From Escherichia coli (GTDB taxonomy: Bacteria > Pseudomonadota > Gammaproteobacteria > Enterobacterales > Enterobacteriaceae): DNA of 64,000 nt. A program made the translations under genes and the position numbers. Below are positions 5,053 through 64,000 of this stretch, piece by piece. A model generated the notes under the pieces. It was not told where the DNA came from, did no database searches, and saw only the letters and a program-made list of their open reading frames with translations. Position 1 is the first letter of the stretch. Each line of letters starts with the position of its first letter. The stretch lies in assembly GCF_003334385.1 (NCBI RefSeq), contig NZ_QOWN01000001.1; one strand, written 5' to 3'.

Positions 5053-7134
5053 TTACGCATTCGAGTAACGTTCCGTCTCCGGCATCCAGCGTTCTATCAG
5101 GGCTTTTGCCTGTTGTGGGTAACGTTCGTGAATATGGCGTGCCAGGCGCTGAACTTCCGGGATCATCGCCTGATCGCGCAGTAAATCCGCCACTTTAAAT
5201 TCAGCATTACCCGTCTGACGCGTGCCTAACAATTCGCCAGGGCCGCGAATCTCCAGATCTTTTTGCGCAATCACAAAACCGTCGTTACTGTCGCGCAGCA
5301 CTTGCAGGCGAATTTGCGCCGTTTTAGAAAGCGGCGTTTTGTAGAGCAGCACGCAGTGAGAAGCCACCGCGCCACGACCTACGCGCCCGCGCAGCTGGTG
5401 TAACTGCGCCAGACCCAGACGCTCCGGGTTTTCGATAATCATCAGACTGGCGTTAGGCACATCAACGCCGACTTCAATAACGGTTGTGGCAACCAGCAGG
5501 TGTAGCTCACCTTGTTTAAACGACGCCATCACCGCCTGTTTCTCGGCAGGTTTCATCCGCCCGTGTACCAGGCCAACGTTCAACTCTGGTAGCGCCAGTT
5601 TCAACTCTTCCCAGGTAGCTTCCGCCGCCTGCGCTTCCAGCAATTCCGACTCTTCAATCAACGTACAAACCCAGTATGCCTGACGACCTTCAGTTATGCA
5701 GGCGTGGTGCACGCGGTCAATGATGTCGGTACGGCGGGTATCAGGAATAGCGACCGTAGTCACTGGCGTGCGGCCTGGCGGCAGCTCATCTATCACCGAG
5801 GTATCGAGATCGGCATACGCAGTCATTGCCAGCGTGCGGGGGATCGGCGTGGCGGTCATGATCAACTGATGCGGATGGAAGCCCTGCTGCTGGCCTTTCT
5901 CCCACAATGCCAGACGCTGATGCACGCCAAAACGATGCTGTTCGTCGATAATCACCAGCGCCAGGCCGTTAAACTGCACCTGTTCCTGGAAGATGGCGTG
6001 TGTACCGACAATCATCTGCACCTGACCGCTGGCGATGGCTTCCTGCTGTGCCAGCCGTGCTTTACCTTTCTGCTTACCGGCGAGCCAGCCCACTTCGATA
6101 CCGAGCGGTGCAAACCAGTTGCGGAAGTTATTGGCGTGCTGCTCGGCGAGTAATTCGGTTGGTGCCATCAATGCTACCTGTTTGCCGTGGGCAATCGCAC
6201 GCAACGCGGCGAGGGCGGCGACCAGCGTTTTACCGGAACCTACATCGCCCTGCACCAGACGCATCATCGGCACATCCAGCGCCATATCGCGCTCGATCTC
6301 CGCCACTACGCGTGCCTGTGCGCCCGTTGGCTTGAACGGTAAGGCGGCGAGGAGTTTATTTTTCAGCGTGTCATTGGCGCTCAGCGGCTGGGCATGAAAA
6401 CGCTGTGCTCCGGCACGTAAGGCTAACATGCTGAGGTTGTGCGCCAGCAGTTCTTCCAGAATCAGACGACGTTGCGCCGGATGCTGCCCGGTTTCCAGAT
6501 CGCTAAGCTGTAGCGTCGGTGGCGGGCGGTGCAAAGTGCGCAACGCTTCCGGTAGCGTCATCATTCCTTGTGACAGTTCCGGCGGCAGGAGTTCTTCAAT
6601 GGCGCAGGTGTCGAGCAGATCCAGCGCCTGGTCGGTTAATTTACGCAGCGTGGCCTGCTTTACGCCTTCCGTTGTTGGATAAACCGGCGTGAGCGTTTCC
6701 TGTAATTCTGGCGTGCTGAGATCGCCCTGCACGCGGTATTCCGGGTGGATCATCTCCGCACCATATTTACCGCGCTTTGCTTCGCCATAAGCCAGTACAC
6801 GGCGGCCCGCCGCCAGGCTATTTTTCATTGCCGCGCTGAAATTGAAAAAGCGCATGGTGAGGATGCCGGAACCGTCGCTGATCTGGCAGGTCATCATCCG
6901 CCGACCGCCGAAGGAGATATTGCAGTTCAGCACTTCGCCTTCCACCGTGGCATAAACGCCCGGCAGTAGTTCTCCGATGGGGTAGAGATGGGTGCGATCT
7001 TCGTAGCGCAGGGGAAGGTGTAAGAGTAGATCCTGCACGGTATGCAGGTTGATTTTCGCCAGTTTGTTACTAAGTGCTGCGCCAACGCCCGTTAGGGAAC
7101 TGAGTGGGACAGCATCTAACAGGCGACCTTTCAT
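5053..7134 (-). CDS. recG: ATP-dependent DNA helicase RecG
   Basis: 704-aa ORF; Met at 7134 gives 693 aa MKGRLLDAVPLSSLTGVG...; Walker A GDVGSGKT and DEQH box (VIIDEQHRFG). Confidence 0.95.
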   Translation of the reverse strand: MKGRLLDAVPLSSLTGVGAALSNKLAKINLHTVQDLLLHLPLRYEDRTHLYPIGELLPGVYATVEGEVLNCNISFGGRRMMTCQISDGSGILTMRFFNFSAAMKNSLAAGRRVLAYGEAKRGKYGAEMIHPEYRVQGDLSTPELQETLTPVYPTTEGVKQATLRKLTDQALDLLDTCAIEELLPPELSQGMMTLPEALRTLHRPPPTLQLSDLETGQHPAQRRLILEELLAHNLSMLALRAGAQRFHAQPLSANDTLKNKLLAALPFKPTGAQARVVAEIERDMALDVPMMRLVQGDVGSGKTLVAALAALRAIAHGKQVALMAPTELLAEQHANNFRNWFAPLGIEVGWLAGKQKGKARLAQQEAIASGQVQMIVGTHAIFQEQVQFNGLALVIIDEQHRFGVHQRLALWEKGQQQGFHPHQLIMTATPIPRTLAMTAYADLDTSVIDELPPGRTPVTTVAIPDTRRTDIIDRVHHACITEGRQAYWVCTLIEESELLEAQAAEATWEELKLALPELNVGLVHGRMKPAEKQAVMASFKQGELHLLVATTVIEVGVDVPNASLMIIENPERLGLAQLHQLRGRVGRGAVASHCVLLYKTPLSKTAQIRLQVLRDSNDGFVIAQKDLEIRGPGELLGTRQTGNAEFKVADLLRDQAMIPEVQRLARHIHERYPQQAKALIERWMPETERYSNA

Positions 7135-7139
7135 GGCAC

Positions 7140-7829
7140 TTACCCTGCAGCCTGCATAGTAGCCCACCAGTCGGCATCAGCTTCGATCTCGCCTTGCTGA
7201 TTGACGTGGGGATAAGGCAGGCCTTTGCGTTTTGCGACTTTCGCCAGCACCGGATAGCCGCCTTCAAACAACAGGCGTTGTTGCTCTGCTTCCGGCAACA
7301 TGCTGTTTTCACGCAGGTACATGCCTGCATTTTGCCGCTGACGCTGGGCTTCGTAAAGAATGAGGGCTGAGGCAACGGAAACATTCAGCGACTGCACCAT
7401 GCCGATCATCGGAATGATGATGTCCTGATCCGCCAGGGCCAATGCTTCCTGCGTGATGCCCGTTTTCTCCTGTCCCATCAAAATGCAGGTCGGGCGAGTG
7501 TAATCAATTTCGCGGAAATCGACAGCGTTATCAGAAAGATGGGTTGCCAGAATCTGCATGCCCTGGCCTTTGAGATGAGCGACGGCATCGCCAATGGTGC
7601 GGTGTGTTTTCACCTGTACCCAGCTGTTACTACCCGCCGCTGCCGAAGCCATGGTGCGCATGCGGCTACCAGGCCAGACGGCGTGAACTTCATGTACGCC
7701 AACGGCATCTGCGGTACGAATAATCGCAGAAACGTTATGAGGTTTGTGGACCTGCTCCATGCAGACGGTCAGATCAGGCTGCCGCCTGGCGAGCATTTCG
7801 CAGATGCGTGCATAACGTGTTGGGTTCAT
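7140..7829 (-). CDS. trmH: tRNA (Gm18) 2'-O-methyltransferase (SpoU family)
   Basis: 229-aa ORF MNPTRYARICEMLARRQPDLTVCMEQVHKPHN... recognised as TrmH/SpoU; sits between spoT and recG. Confidence 0.95.
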   Translation of the reverse strand: MNPTRYARICEMLARRQPDLTVCMEQVHKPHNVSAIIRTADAVGVHEVHAVWPGSRMRTMASAAAGSNSWVQVKTHRTIGDAVAHLKGQGMQILATHLSDNAVDFREIDYTRPTCILMGQEKTGITQEALALADQDIIIPMIGMVQSLNVSVASALILYEAQRQRQNAGMYLRENSMLPEAEQQRLLFEGGYPVLAKVAKRKGLPYPHVNQQGEIEADADWWATMQAAG

Positions 7830-60209: not shown

Positions 60210-60225
60210 TGTGATATCAATCACA
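60210..60225. promoter_or_regulatory. CRP site in the mtlA regulatory region
   Basis: TGTGATATCAATCACA (TGTGA-N6-TCACA, both half-sites perfect). Confidence 0.8.
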
Positions 60226-60326
60226 TAAATATAGGGGGTAGAGAGGTAATTGACGTGACGTTCATCACAAAACGCTTGTGTAAAAAAGCAACAAGGCGGC
60301 GATTTTCGCTAAAAATGGCATTTAAA

Positions 60327-60342
60327 TGTGAGTAGTGTCACA
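60327..60342. promoter_or_regulatory. CRP site in the mtlA regulatory region
   Basis: TGTGAGTAGTGTCACA. Confidence 0.8.
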
Positions 60343-60370
60343 TTTTTGTTTTGATGGTTTGTTGAATCTT

Positions 60371-60386
60371 TGTGATCTGAATCACA
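60371..60386. promoter_or_regulatory. CRP site in the mtlA regulatory region
   Basis: TGTGATCTGAATCACA. Confidence 0.8.
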
Positions 60387-60602: not shown

Positions 60603-60965
60603 ATGTTTCTAAACTATTTCGCGTTGGGAGTGCTGATCTTCGTCTTTCTGGTGATTTTTTATGGAATCATCGCGATACATGACATCCCTTATCTGATTGC
60701 CAAAAAGCGCAACCATCCCCATGCCGACGCTATTCATACGGCGGGCTGGGTGAGCCTGTTTACTCTGCATGTTATCTGGCCGTTTCTGTGGATCTGGGCG
60801 ACGCTCTATCAACCGGAGCGTGGCTGGGGTATGCAGTCACATGTTGCGTCGCAGGAGAAAGCGACTGACCCGGAAATCGCCGCACTTTCTGACCGAATTT
60901 CCCGGCTGGAGCATCAACTCGCCGCCGAGAAAAAGACTGACTATTCCACGTTCCCGGAGATCTAA
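60603..60965 (+). CDS. yibI: DUF3302-family small inner membrane protein
   Basis: 120-aa [69 protein letters not shown]... (two TM helices, charged C-tail). Confidence 0.9.
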
Positions 60966-60967
60966 TT

Positions 60968-62104
60968 ATGGATCTATTGATTGTTTTAACTTACGTGGCG
61001 CTGGCGTGGGCGGTCTTTAAAATCTTCCGCATTCCGGTAAATCAGTGGACGCTGGCGACGGCGGCGCTGGGAGGCGTGTTTCTGGTGAGTGGTTTGATTT
61101 TGTTGATGAACTACAACCACCCTTACACTTTTACCGCGCAAAAGGCAGTGATAGCGATCCCTATCACGCCACAGGTGACGGGAATTGTTACTGAAGTCAC
61201 TGACAAGAATAATCAGCTTATTCAAAAGGGCGAGGTGCTTTTTAAGCTCGACCCGGTTCGTTACCAGGCGCGAGTTGACAGACTTCAGGCTGACCTGATG
61301 ACGGCGACGCATAATATAAAGACGCTGCGTGCGCAGCTCACTGAAGCGCAGGCCAACACCACCCAGGTTTCAGCGGAGCGCGACCGTCTGTTTAAAAATT
61401 ATCAACGTTACTTGAAAGGCAGCCAGGCGGCGGTGAATCCGTTCTCGGAACGTGACATCGACGATGCGCGGCAAAATTTCCTCGCGCAGGATGCGCTGGT
61501 GAAAGGCTCGGTGGCGGAGCAGGCGCAGATCCAGAGCCAGCTCGACAGTATGGTTAACGGCGAGCAATCGCAGATTGTGAGCTTAAGAGCGCAACTTACT
61601 GAAGCAAAATATAACCTTGAGCAGACTGTCATTCGCGCGCCGAGCAATGGCTACGTTACTCAGGTACTGATCCGCCCAGGTACATACGCAGCTGCCTTGC
61701 CGCTGCGTCCGGTGATGGTCTTCATCCCCGAGCAAAAACGGCAAATTGTCGCCCAATTTCGGCAAAACTCGCTGTTACGTCTGAAACCCGGCGATGATGC
61801 GGAAGTGGTGTTTAACGCGCTACCTGGGCAGGTGTTTCACGGCAAACTGACTAGTATTTTACCTGTCGTGCCAGGCGGTTCTTATCAGGCGCAGGGGGTA
61901 TTGCAATCATTAACGGTCGTGCCCGGCACGGACGGTGTGCTGGGAACCATTGAACTGGACCCTAACGATGATATCGATGCCTTACCCGACGGCATCTACG
62001 CCCAGGTGGCGGTTTACTCCGACCATTTCAGCCATGTTTCGGTGATGCGGAAAGTGCTGCTAAGAATGACCAGCTGGATGCATTATCTTTATTTGGATCA
62101 TTGA
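60968..62104 (+). CDS. yibH: HlyD-family membrane fusion-like protein
   Basis: 378-aa ORF; N-terminal TM, coiled-coil middle ([24 protein letters not shown]), barrel-like C-terminus; starts 2 nt after the yibI stop. Confidence 0.9.
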
Positions 62105-62142
62105 GGGGGAGGGGGGAGATTATGGAACTTTGCTCCTTGTAA

Positions 62143-62400
62143 GGACTAATTATTTTTGCATATTACTTCATTAGCTGCGATGATTTTTCTTTAATATTCA
62201 TTATGTTAATAAGTTCTGGATGAGTGTGCTCTCATTGGATTTTTTATCCGTCTTGTTCTGCCGCAGGATGAGACTATACATCGTCGAGATCGCAATGATG
62301 ATATGAGTTGTTCCTCCTGCGACGGCTCTAATCAAAAAAGAGCAGGAGTGCTTTTCCATCTATTGCGATGATGGCTTTATTATCTGAAGGATGACAGTCA
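62143..62400 (-). pseudogene. degenerate fragment of an ISAs1-family (H-repeat-associated) transposase gene
   Basis: Minus-strand translations in shifting frames: ...PSDNKAIIAIDGKALLLFFD*, ...LRQNKTDKKSNESTLIQNLLT**, ...NIMNIKEKIIAANEVICKNN*. They resemble the conserved AIDGK.LR and KTDEKSNEI..IP.LL..LDIKG...T.DA..CQ blocks of H-rpt transposases (from memory); many stops and shifts. Confidence 0.45.
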
Positions 62401-62563
62401 CATTTAAAAAATATTTAATCTATAGATCACAATGTAGGGTCATGGAATATATGTATACAACTATTTTCTTCTTCACTTTTAATTATCGTATTCATTATAA
62501 AACTAAGTTAAAAAAACTCCTGGAGAGTGAGTTATTAATATATTTTTAAATAAAATTAAGTTA

Positions 62564-63084
62564 TCATTCATCGATGCACTTTATAGAATCATCAATGGCC
62601 ATAATAGTACTATTAACTCTCAATTTTATATTTTTATCATCACTACAAATATTAACTGAATTTATATCAATGATTTTTTTATTCTTATCTTTTATTTTAT
62701 TTACTGTTTCAATGCAATCAGCGGCAAGTTGGAGTGGATTTAGATTTTTCAGATATGGTCTTATGATCTTTCCCTTACTTAATAAATAGCATGTATAGGA
62801 TTCGGAAAGTCCAGCATCTATTTTGTACCTCATTATATTAGATAAGGATGTGAGAAATTCCTTGTTATCATTCGCAGCCATATATGCCAGTCCGAGTTCA
62901 GCCTCTGCGGCCTTACAGGCAAAATAGCTTAGTGAACACGCTTTTCGTCCCTCTTTAGTACTGGCTGATATTAGTGCCCATAATATTGCTTTGTCTGCCA
63001 AATCTAACTCTCTCTGAAATTGTCTTGCAGTAACTGCACTCGCAGAAATAGAGAAAAAAATACAATTGTTAATAACCTTGCCAT
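62564..63084 (-). pseudogene. immunity-like gene following the orphan Rhs toxin tip; signal peptide separated from the body by a frameshift
   Basis: ATG 63084 lies 5 nt after the toxin stop and encodes MARLLTIVFFSLFLRVQLLQDNFRES*. One extra T in the T7 run (63054-63060) would fuse MARLLTIVFFFSISASA|VTARQFQRELD to the 145-aa ORF (TTG 63001) LADKAILWALISASTKEGRK... Confidence 0.5.
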
Positions 63085-63089
63085 ATTTT

Positions 63090-63668
63090 TTAGTCCGTAA
63101 CTGTTAATGTGCTATCTGGCTCTGAAAATATTAACTCATTTAATTTTTGCATGTCATTAGATAAACCAGTTATACAACCCTCGGAACAGAATCGAGGTCC
63201 TAAAGACGGACCAAAAGCGTTTAAACAACTATGTATTGAAAATCCATTGCGATTATAAGTTCCTGTATTAACTGACGGTACTAATCGTATGCCGTCAGGT
63301 TTTCTATTGCTTGCTCCCGGGTCATTAACATTCCAACTCCATAGGCCTTGAGGTATTGGCCATCTATTTATAAATGTGTACAACGGGGATTATTTTTACA
63401 TTGCATATTATTACCAGAAGCGACTGGAATACTAAGCACATCATAAAAATTATCATCACATGGTATATCTGAAACACACGAAAGCATACCTAAAGTTATG
63501 CTGTATAAACAGGTGGCTAATCCCAAGGGGATCGATTCCAGAAATCGGGTTCAACGGATACTGATAAAAATTCCACCTACCTTCCAGCCCAATCGGAGCC
63601 TGAGTGTTATACCGCCCCTGCTGCGGTTAATGTTACCGATAATAGTTATAGTACAGCCCTGATTCATC
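63090..63668 (-). pseudogene. orphan Rhs C-terminal toxin cassette (Rhs core-tail remnant + YkuD/Tlde1-like domain), disrupted
   Basis: Minus strand: [46 protein letters not shown](L), the end of an Rhs core with the DPxGL boundary. The tip is readable only across two C4-run frameshifts (63527-30, 63385-88), ending in the 97-aa ORF ...WPIPQGLW...NGFSIHSCLNAFGPSLGPRFCSEGCITG... Confidence 0.55.
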
Positions 63669-63707
63669 ATCATACTACTGCTGCGGCAGTCTGATGAACT
63701 ATTGCTT

Positions 63708-64000
63708 TTACGGATTCTCCTTATTCTTCCTTCTATCCATTCGCTTTAGCTTTTTGAGCTCTTGAAGTTTGCTCTTTGCATCAATATTACCGTTATTTAC
63801 AGCGAATTCCATCCAATAAATAGCTCTATTCAAATTATAATATTCTGATAATGTTGGATTTGTATCTGATAAAAAGACCCCATAATTAAACTGCGCTGTA
63901 ACATTCCCCTGAGATGCTGATCTTTCCAAGAATCGCAATTGTTTGTAAATGTTATTTTTAGTAAAGCAGTAATATTGATATAGTCGAAATGATGCCTCTG
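63708..64000 (-). CDS. yibG: Sel1/TPR-like repeat protein, C-terminal part (gene continues beyond right edge)
   Basis: The frame is open to the window edge (...EASFRLYQYYCFTKNNIYKQLRFLERSASQGNVTAQFNYGVFLSD...AIYWMEFAVNNGNIDAKSKLQELKK...). Sel1-like A..G...A and A..W...A...G spacing; the yibG name is tentative, from position in the rhsA tail. Confidence 0.45.
   Translation of the reverse strand, partial: EASFRLYQYYCFTKNNIYKQLRFLERSASQGNVTAQFNYGVFLSDTNPTLSEYYNLNRAIYWMEFAVNNGNIDAKSKLQELKKLKRMDRRKNKENP

Follow-up and report, generated by a model that had tools for sequence, protein, structure and literature searches.

The DNA analysed here, referred to as the window, is a stretch of 64,000 nucleotides from Escherichia coli (assembly GCF_003334385.1, contig NZ_QOWN01000001.1), and its positions 60603-62104 hold the gene pair yibI-yibH, which encodes a small membrane protein of the DUF3302 family and a periplasmic adaptor (membrane-fusion) protein of the EmrA type (Table 1). 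Of the complete E. coli genomes compared by megablast, 5407 of 5426 (99.6%) carry the pair, on the chromosome in every case. The initial annotation of the window had placed a 120-residue protein here and, 2 nt further on, a 378-residue protein, and the coordinates and sequence of the open reading frames (ORFs) agree with it exact to the base. Comparison of loci from many genomes establishes, at the level of sequence, that the two genes are co-inherited and tightly coupled and that both are under purifying selection.

Co-inheritance of DUF3302 and adaptor genes

DUF3302 loci were drawn from one genome per species (80 loci), from metagenomes seeded with distant members of the family (80 loci), and from exact look-ups of divergent members in Shewanella, Marinobacter, Vibrio, Chromatiaceae and a soil contig. 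All loci (L numbers below) were scanned with hidden Markov models (HMMs) of both proteins, and a DUF3302 gene was counted when at least 600 nt of downstream sequence was present. A YibH-like adaptor gene lies immediately downstream on the same strand in 147 of the 149 informative loci, in a set that includes Enterobacterales, Vibrionales, Alteromonadales, Marinobacter/Alcanivorax, Chromatiales and Alphaproteobacteria. The reverse look-up gave the same picture, as adaptors retrieved by their own profile likewise have DUF3302 upstream. The initial annotation had named conservation as a unit beforehand as the point on which its proposal could fail, and searches in both directions found the two genes together.

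The two exceptions are secondary events, consistent with the pairing rule. In L105 both genes are intact and a 439-residue transposase-like ORF (6430-7749, minus strand) sits between them, comparable to the IS421 and IS903B insertions of two E. coli hits (H1 and H2). The other exception, L099 (5734-6462), is a deletion remnant beside an integrase-like ORF, in which the DUF3302 reading frame continues directly into the final ~20 adaptor residues (...IRRILLRMRSWQNYIFMEGH). The top hit (P0270, 446 residues) was considered as a possible gene fusion and rejected as an internal duplication artefact. A 433-bp low-coverage contig in a Myxococcus assembly (L020) carries a DUF3302 gene of the enterobacterial type, with 73% identity to YibI, and is probably contamination.

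The genes are closely spaced in nearly all loci. Among 119 pairs with clear boundaries, 58 have a spacer of 2 nt, 17 of 4 nt, 16 of 5 nt and 14 of 1-3 nt, ten overlap by 1 nt and four have a longer spacer, so that 115 of the 119 have at most 5 nt or overlap. Such a pattern is typical of translational coupling, which it suggests for this operon. Relative to Escherichia sp. E1V33, the ratio of nonsynonymous to synonymous substitution rates (dN/dS) is 0.040 for yibI and 0.037 for yibH, and it remains below 0.1 at larger distances while dS is measurable. Among 151 adaptor genes downstream of an intact DUF3302 gene, nine (~6%) are frameshifted or truncated (L007, L017, L029, L038, L075, L123, L131, L160 and L161); these could be pseudogenes or assembly errors.

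A conserved membrane core shared by YibI and YibH

YibI scores 140 bits with DUF3302 (PF11742), for which the cutoff is 32, and the match spans positions 1-76 of the 77 in the model. Its AlphaFold2 (AF2) model, with a mean predicted local distance difference test score (pLDDT) of 79, is a long helical hairpin, formed by residues 2-35 and 39-68, that turns tightly at N37-H38-P39 and is followed by a third helix (90-115). The hairpin tip is rich in His, Asp, Lys and Arg, and alignments reveal invariant residues both in the tip (H26, D27, P29, R36, H38, P39, D42 and H45) and in the second helix (W49, S51, H56, W59, P60, W63 and W65). The C-terminal helix preserves a leucine heptad pattern despite its variable sequence, with L95 and L102 near-invariant. 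From the charge distribution and the positive-inside rule, the tip is predicted to be cytoplasmic, which would place both termini and the C-terminal helix in the periplasm. A sequence search of the PDB with YibI returned designed coiled coils only, matching its tail, Foldseek with the YibI model gave no match, and the PDB holds no solved structure for YibI or YibH.

YibH belongs to the EmrA class of periplasmic adaptors: it combines a lipoyl domain, a long α-hairpin and a β-barrel and lacks a membrane-proximal domain. Pfam matches (CusB_dom_1, HlyD_D23, HlyD_3 and Biotin_lipoyl_2), AF2 and Foldseek agree on the hallmark of adaptors of the HlyD family (TCDB 8.A.1), a lipoyl (barrel-sandwich) domain split by an α-helical hairpin and followed by a β-barrel. 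In the AF2 model, two N-terminal helices (2-19 and 29-48) precede the split lipoyl domain; the two arms of the hairpin (97-152 and 161-218) are helices of ~57 residues apiece, and the β-barrel is followed by a C-terminal helix (352-377). Its closest folds in the PDB are the EmrA chains from EmrAB-TolC (E = 6e-18, template modelling score 0.52-0.56), followed by MacA, AcrA and MexA, each with a Foldseek probability of 1.00; ZneB was also matched. Among NCBIfam models only the generic RND_mfp is passed (99.9 against 94.9 bits), and the specific models remain far below their cutoffs: 113.5 against 390.8 bits for EmrA/EmrK (TIGR00998), 110.9 against 376 for MdtN (NF007785) and 75.1 against 400 for AaeA (NF007850). 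A PADLOC search for an anti-phage defence role gave no match for YibI and coiled-coil noise only for YibH (E = 0.005), and such a role was rejected.

The initial annotation had described YibH as an N-terminal anchor, a coiled-coil hairpin and a barrel-like C-terminus. The hairpin and barrel are borne out by Pfam and AF2; the anchor proves to be two hydrophobic helices, where EmrA, AaeA and YdhJ have one for inner-membrane anchoring, and a C-terminal helix had gone unmentioned. The two N-terminal helices are linked by a short basic loop, and the module ends in an invariant YNHP motif. The loop carries K18 and R21, and by the positive-inside rule the N-terminus and the bulk of YibH would therefore be periplasmic.

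Conservation was scored over 30 non-redundant pairs. In YibH it is highest at the two ends of the protein (0.81 for residues 1-52 and 0.80 for residues 346-378), intermediate in the lipoyl domain and barrel (0.62-0.73) and lowest in the hairpin (0.56), whose tip is no better conserved than its surroundings in the diverse set. In YibI it reaches 0.82-0.93 in the hairpin and falls to 0.27 in the tail. YibI retains 55-67% identity to the E. coli protein in lineages where adaptor identity is 36-46%.

Full-length adaptors fall into size classes of 317, 375-385 and 429-438 residues, and the entire difference between them lies in the α-hairpin, which varies threefold in length. Every class keeps the two-helix N-terminal module, the YNHP/FHP motif and the C-terminal ...RKxLLRMxSW... 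helix, in which R361, L365, R366 and W370 are invariant in all three classes; the deletion remnant L099 also keeps the C-terminal tail. The membrane module, consisting of the YibI hairpin and the N-terminal and C-terminal helices of YibH, is thus the conserved core of the pair. The pair of N-terminal hydrophobic helices of YibH, its conserved C-terminal amphipathic helix, the conservation of the membrane module and the hairpin length classes are new in this analysis.

Table 1. Features of the yibI-yibH locus in the window, and members of two adaptor length classes at other loci (L numbers)
Feature	Coordinates	Strand	Basis
yibI coding sequence, 120 aa, DUF3302 family	60603..60965 (ATG to TAA)	+	ORF list; PF11742, E = 2.7e-41
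YibI hydrophobic helix 1, residues 3-25	60609..60677	+	hydropathy; AF2 helix 2-35; conservation 0.82
YibI charged hairpin tip, residues 26-46	60678..60740	+	alignments; AF2 turn 36-38; conservation 0.88
YibI hydrophobic helix 2, residues 47-68, Trp-rich	60741..60806	+	alignments, hydropathy, AF2; conservation 0.93
YibI C-terminal helix, residues 90-115	60870..60947	+	AF2; variable sequence, tail conservation 0.27
Gene junction TAA-tt-ATG, 2-nt spacer, implying translational coupling	60963..60970	+	sequence; spacer distribution in 119 pairs
yibH coding sequence, 378 aa, EmrA-type membrane-fusion (periplasmic adaptor) protein	60968..62104 (ATG to TGA)	+	ORF list, Pfam, AF2, fold match
YibH N-terminal membrane module, two hydrophobic helices, residues 2-19 and 29-48	60971..61111	+	hydropathy, AF2, alignment; conservation 0.81
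YibH α-helical hairpin, residues 97-218	61256..61621	+	AF2; HMM alignment to 8zar EmrA; length classes
YibH second lipoyl half and β-barrel, residues 221-350	61628..62017	+	Pfam HlyD_3, HlyD_D23; AF2 strands
YibH conserved C-terminal amphipathic helix, residues 352-377	62021..62098	+	conservation 0.80-0.90; AF2
Four CRP-type palindromes, mtlA/yibI divergent intergenic region	60210..60386	.	TGTGA-N6-TCACA, at most 1 mismatch
Adaptor, short class (317 aa)	L088/L089 8346-9299; L108 3206-4159; L115 602-1555
Adaptor, long class (429-438 aa)	L090 3292-4593; L093; L097; L102 6394-7707

Gene neighbourhood, regulation and published phenotypes

The initial annotation had reported no ATP-binding cassette (ABC), resistance-nodulation-division (RND) or major facilitator superfamily (MFS) pump and no outer-membrane factor next to the pair, and the annotated genes within 9 kb on either side of E. 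coli yibIH include none of these and no FUSC/ArAE gene. FUSC/ArAE pump genes are likewise absent from the window and from the related loci inspected. For a wider search, flanking ORFs were clustered and the adaptors grouped at 70% identity into 16 lineages of alpha- and gammaproteobacteria. No neighbour family occurs in more than five of the 16 lineages, and the three that reach five are minus-strand ORFs of ~100-120 residues located inside the pair, which we read as antisense shadow ORFs. Neither the 16 lineages nor the three length classes show a pump or outer-membrane-factor gene as a recurrent neighbour of the pair. By Pfam, the non-enteric neighbours are a mixture of aminotransferase, glycosidase, DnaJ, porin, MFS, amidase, isoamylase, PGM, SLT, SecA-like, MscS-like, sulfate permease and MalT genes.

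Several individual neighbours were considered as a third partner. On two Chromatiaceae contigs (L088/L089, 3331-7950) an RND operon lies directly upstream of a short-class pair on the same strand; it encodes a 376-residue adaptor of its own, a 1035-residue ACR_tran protein and a 92-residue ORF, and a MoxR/DUF58/VWA (BatA-like) cluster follows downstream of the pair. This operon was rejected as a conserved partner because it already encodes an adaptor and because the short-class locus L108 lacks this arrangement. The SecA-like gene, the MscS-like gene (L090), a porin (L079) and a LysR regulator (L072) were rejected as single loci, none of which recurs. In the Serratia locus L072 the LysR gene is divergent from the pair. 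Genes for an MscS-type channel and for an SBF-family (bile acid:sodium symporter-like) protein were each seen twice near non-enteric pairs (L087 6112-7751; L090 658-2925; L102 2006-2938), in numbers too small for an association.

In E. coli, the annotated neighbours are the divergent mtlA gene on one flank and an Imm57 gene, RHS fragments, yibG, yibA and rhsA on the other, in agreement with the mtlA region and Rhs debris named by the initial annotation; lldP, 5 kb away, encodes the lactate permease. The GC content is ~0.53 across yibIH, at the level of the core genome, and falls to 0.27-0.40 right after yibH (62100-64000), which marks the border between the core genome and a low-GC island associated with rhsA. 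Within this island, an intact ORF of 145 residues (62564-63001, minus strand) matches the Imm57 immunity protein (E = 1.9e-48) and is an orphan immunity gene within Rhs debris; its counterpart in strain 300709 is annotated as a frameshifted pseudogene. For the minus-strand ORFs at 63090-63383 and 63708-63938, a Pfam search gave nothing at E ≤ 0.001.

The intergenic region between mtlA and yibI contains four CRP-type palindromes, 217-393 nt upstream of yibI, which are the sole matches in the window. This cluster, which we take to be the multi-CRP mtlA promoter, is a possible regulatory context common to mtlA and yibIH, with a putative action on the latter. A scan for promoters and terminators found nothing exceeding shuffled expectation, and Rfam gave no match at E ≤ 1 within or around the operon.

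The literature searched assigns no function to yibI-yibH, and mentions of yibH are mostly strain-construction sites or list entries; a 2024 survey of the y-ome lists both genes in a cluster of uncharacterised genes (PMC11551758). In E. coli O157:H7, yibH, the neighbouring mtlA, and yiaW of the paralogous yiaW-yiaV pair together with its neighbour aldB are induced at the transition from exponential to stationary phase, and mtlA and yibH are co-induced at glucose exhaustion (PMC2241611). The CRP-type cluster may explain this co-induction. In uropathogenic E. coli, yibI is induced by urine, and its deletion gave a competitive index of 0.33 and reduced adhesion (PMC5404293). The yibH knockout was among the strains hypersensitive to ornidazole in a screen (PMC9405208), and evolved phages showed lower plaquing on Klebsiella pneumoniae deleted for yibH (PMC11796411). 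Clones adapted to macrophages acquire IS1 insertions in yiaW, which leave the tested phenotype unexplained (PMC5495878), and PMC12844161 cites an earlier study for a higher transformation efficiency on yiaW deletion.

Possible roles and relation to known systems

Our favoured reading, held tentatively and at somewhat less than an even chance, is that YibI is the adaptor's dedicated membrane partner and that the pair constitutes a self-contained EmrA-like envelope complex. The genes would form an obligate, translationally coupled operon whose products make one complex of the inner membrane and periplasm, with YibI, rather than a classical ABC, RND, MFS or ArAE pump, partnering YibH in the membrane, probably 1:1. 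YibH would oligomerise into a periplasmic tube as EmrA does. The profile alignment with E. coli EmrA is unbroken over residues 55-281, apart from a gap of two residues where the hairpin turns at its tip, and the enteric hairpin therefore has the length of the EmrA hairpin, such that the tube could reach TolC; in the other two length classes the hairpin is much shorter or longer. Together, YibI and YibH would contribute four transmembrane helices per heterodimer to a bundle that includes the conserved H26, D27 and H56 and could act as a gate or energy-coupling element. Such a bundle might serve a small self-contained export or conduit system, which would become active when glucose runs out, in stationary phase and in urine.

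A bolder proposal, which we consider doubtful, is that the DUF3302 hairpin, the adaptor's two transmembrane helices and its C-terminal helix constitute an undescribed minimal inner-membrane translocator or gate of about four helices per heterodimer. Its invariant membrane-embedded His and Asp residues would be a possible proton or metal relay, and it would power or gate the adaptor tube without an ABC, RND, MFS or ArAE pump. If true, this minimal translocator would represent a new class of envelope-spanning export system, present in two copies in the E. coli core genome.

Several observations weigh against a self-contained export complex. In the 317-residue class the hairpin could span the distance to an outer-membrane channel only with help from the periplasmic domain of a pump, and this speaks against docking to TolC as the universal function. 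A bundle of four helices per protomer that has no known transporter fold gives little ground for calling it a pump, and in the AF2 model of YibH the pLDDT averages 64, with ~88 in the hairpin and only 40-58 in the membrane parts. The published phenotypes are mild and come from screens. Finally, adaptor genes are broken at some loci and insertion sequences interrupt the locus in some E. coli strains, and the pair is therefore dispensable in some backgrounds, which fits the use of yibH as a neutral integration site.

YibH could instead bridge a pump encoded elsewhere to TolC, such as an orphan FUSC/ArAE protein (YccS or YhfK) or an MFS pump, with YibI as a small accessory subunit like AaeX, YdhI or AcrZ. 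The aaeXAB and ydhIJK operons share the front end of a small two-helix membrane protein and an adaptor, YibH is homologous to AaeA and YdhJ and scores highest among the specific models with EmrA/EmrK and MdtN, and in one Chromatiaceae lineage the pair sits directly downstream of a same-strand RND operon. Nevertheless, we regard this explanation as a live but rather unlikely rival. An adaptor gene is nearly always found linked to the gene of its pump, yet no linked pump gene recurs among the 16 adaptor lineages or the three length classes; the RND operon has its own adaptor and its adjacency is lost at L108; and DUF3302 has no detectable relation to DUF1656, the family compared below (hhalign 0.9%, with only two DUF1656 sequences). 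Furthermore, conservation peaks in the extra membrane helices of YibH and in YibI, not at the sites of generic adaptor-pump contact.

The threefold variation in hairpin length around a fixed membrane module is hard to reconcile with fixed docking to an outer-membrane channel, and the hairpin tip is conserved no more than its surroundings. Both observations would suit a role in the envelope other than transport, in which an adaptor fold anchored by YibI would act as a spacer or tether, a membrane-stress sensor or a scaffold, with the hairpin as a ruler instead of a channel wall; so would the mild envelope-type phenotypes (permeability and transformation on yiaW deletion, adhesion and urine fitness, and phage plaquing). 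We judge such a role a live but rather unlikely alternative, since the characterised members of the fold that were matched (EmrA, MacA, AcrA, MexA and ZneB) all belong to transport conduits, the lipoyl and β-barrel domains are well conserved (0.73), as expected of ring assembly, and the expansion of paralogues resembles substrate diversification in efflux families. That the pair is the decaying remnant of an efflux operon which lost its pump gene, perhaps through rearrangement at the adjoining Rhs element, is highly improbable and contradicted by the evidence. The pair does border low-GC Rhs debris, and ~6% of the sampled adaptor genes are frameshifted or truncated, with insertion sequences in some E. 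coli strains; however, the dN/dS of ~0.04 for both genes means that yibIH is not a decaying operon, and the pair is kept in 99.6% of complete E. coli genomes. The same pump-less layout also recurs in unrelated contexts across two proteobacterial classes, and in yiaWV at a locus without an Rhs element. The recurring two-gene module proposed by the initial annotation, as opposed to a broken efflux operon, thus holds, with 147 of 149 loci paired and no recurrent pump.

To our knowledge, every well-understood adaptor protein operates together with a pump that can be recognised as such. In E. coli K-12, the adaptors YibH and YiaV have no adjoining pump gene, and the coupling to DUF3302 and the shared membrane core turn the question of which pump they serve into the concrete hypothesis that the partner is YibI. 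The genes yibI and yibH are already known and annotated; an adaptor with DUF3302 and without a pump is, as a type of system, undescribed in the literature searched. A self-sufficient pair would widen the known repertoire of envelope-spanning transport machines and might account for the mild phenotypes in urine fitness, permeability and response to phages. Should the pair depend on a distant pump, it would offer an uncommon example of an adaptor and a pump that work together but are encoded apart.

Of the known systems, EmrAB-TolC offers the closest relative of YibH by fold and by PDB sequence, EmrA (PDB 8zar and 8zal; Aquifex aeolicus EmrA 4tko; profile E = 4e-18). The two adaptors share the order of anchor, lipoyl domain, long α-hairpin and β-barrel, and neither has a membrane-proximal domain. 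They differ in sequence, with ~20% identity, and at the N-terminus, where EmrA has a charged cytoplasmic tail and one helix and YibH has two hydrophobic helices, of which EmrA aligns to the second only. The conserved C-terminal amphipathic helix is particular to YibH when it is compared with EmrA, AaeA and YdhJ. Unlike emrA, yibH has no emrB-like MFS gene beside it, and its partner gene encodes a DUF3302 protein instead.

The aaeX-aaeA-aaeB and ydhI-ydhJ-ydhK operons resemble yibIH in gene order: in each, the gene for a small membrane protein with two helices comes first, and that for a homologous adaptor begins 2-8 nt later (24% identity between YibH and AaeA or YdhJ, E = 2e-16 and 7e-19, respectively). 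Both operons carry a third gene for a FUSC/ArAE pump, whereas no such gene accompanies the yibIH pair in the lineages sampled, and AaeA (310 residues) and YdhJ (285 residues) are shorter than YibH, with one N-terminal helix and a short hairpin. In fitness data, DUF1656 cofits with its adaptor and FUSC pump (bioRxiv 10.1101/072470). Homology between DUF3302 and DUF1656 was considered and rejected, as BLASTP found nothing significant and hhalign gave a probability of 0.9%, with only two sequences on the DUF1656 side. AcrZ is a single-helix small protein that binds the RND pump AcrB and is encoded away from acrAB. As a background comparison, AcrZ-AcrAB-TolC shares with YibI the idea of a small inner-membrane protein in an adaptor-containing complex, and the sequences are unrelated.

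The nearest counterpart is yiaW-yiaV, the paralogous pair that the initial annotation had named, which is real and lies ~17 kb from yibIH. It has the same architecture (75% and 77% identity) and is likewise pump-less, and it differs in its context (aldB and yiaU), in the shorter tail of YiaW (107 residues) and in a spacer of 5 nt. At L002 (4631-6690), yiaU, a LysR-family gene truncated there by IS1, converges on yiaV such that the stop regions overlap by 4 nt. YiaV is entered in TCDB as 8.A.1.1.4 and marked "uncharacterized" (PMC10971958). Paralogous pairs of this kind number two in E. coli and at least two in Serratia proteamaculans.

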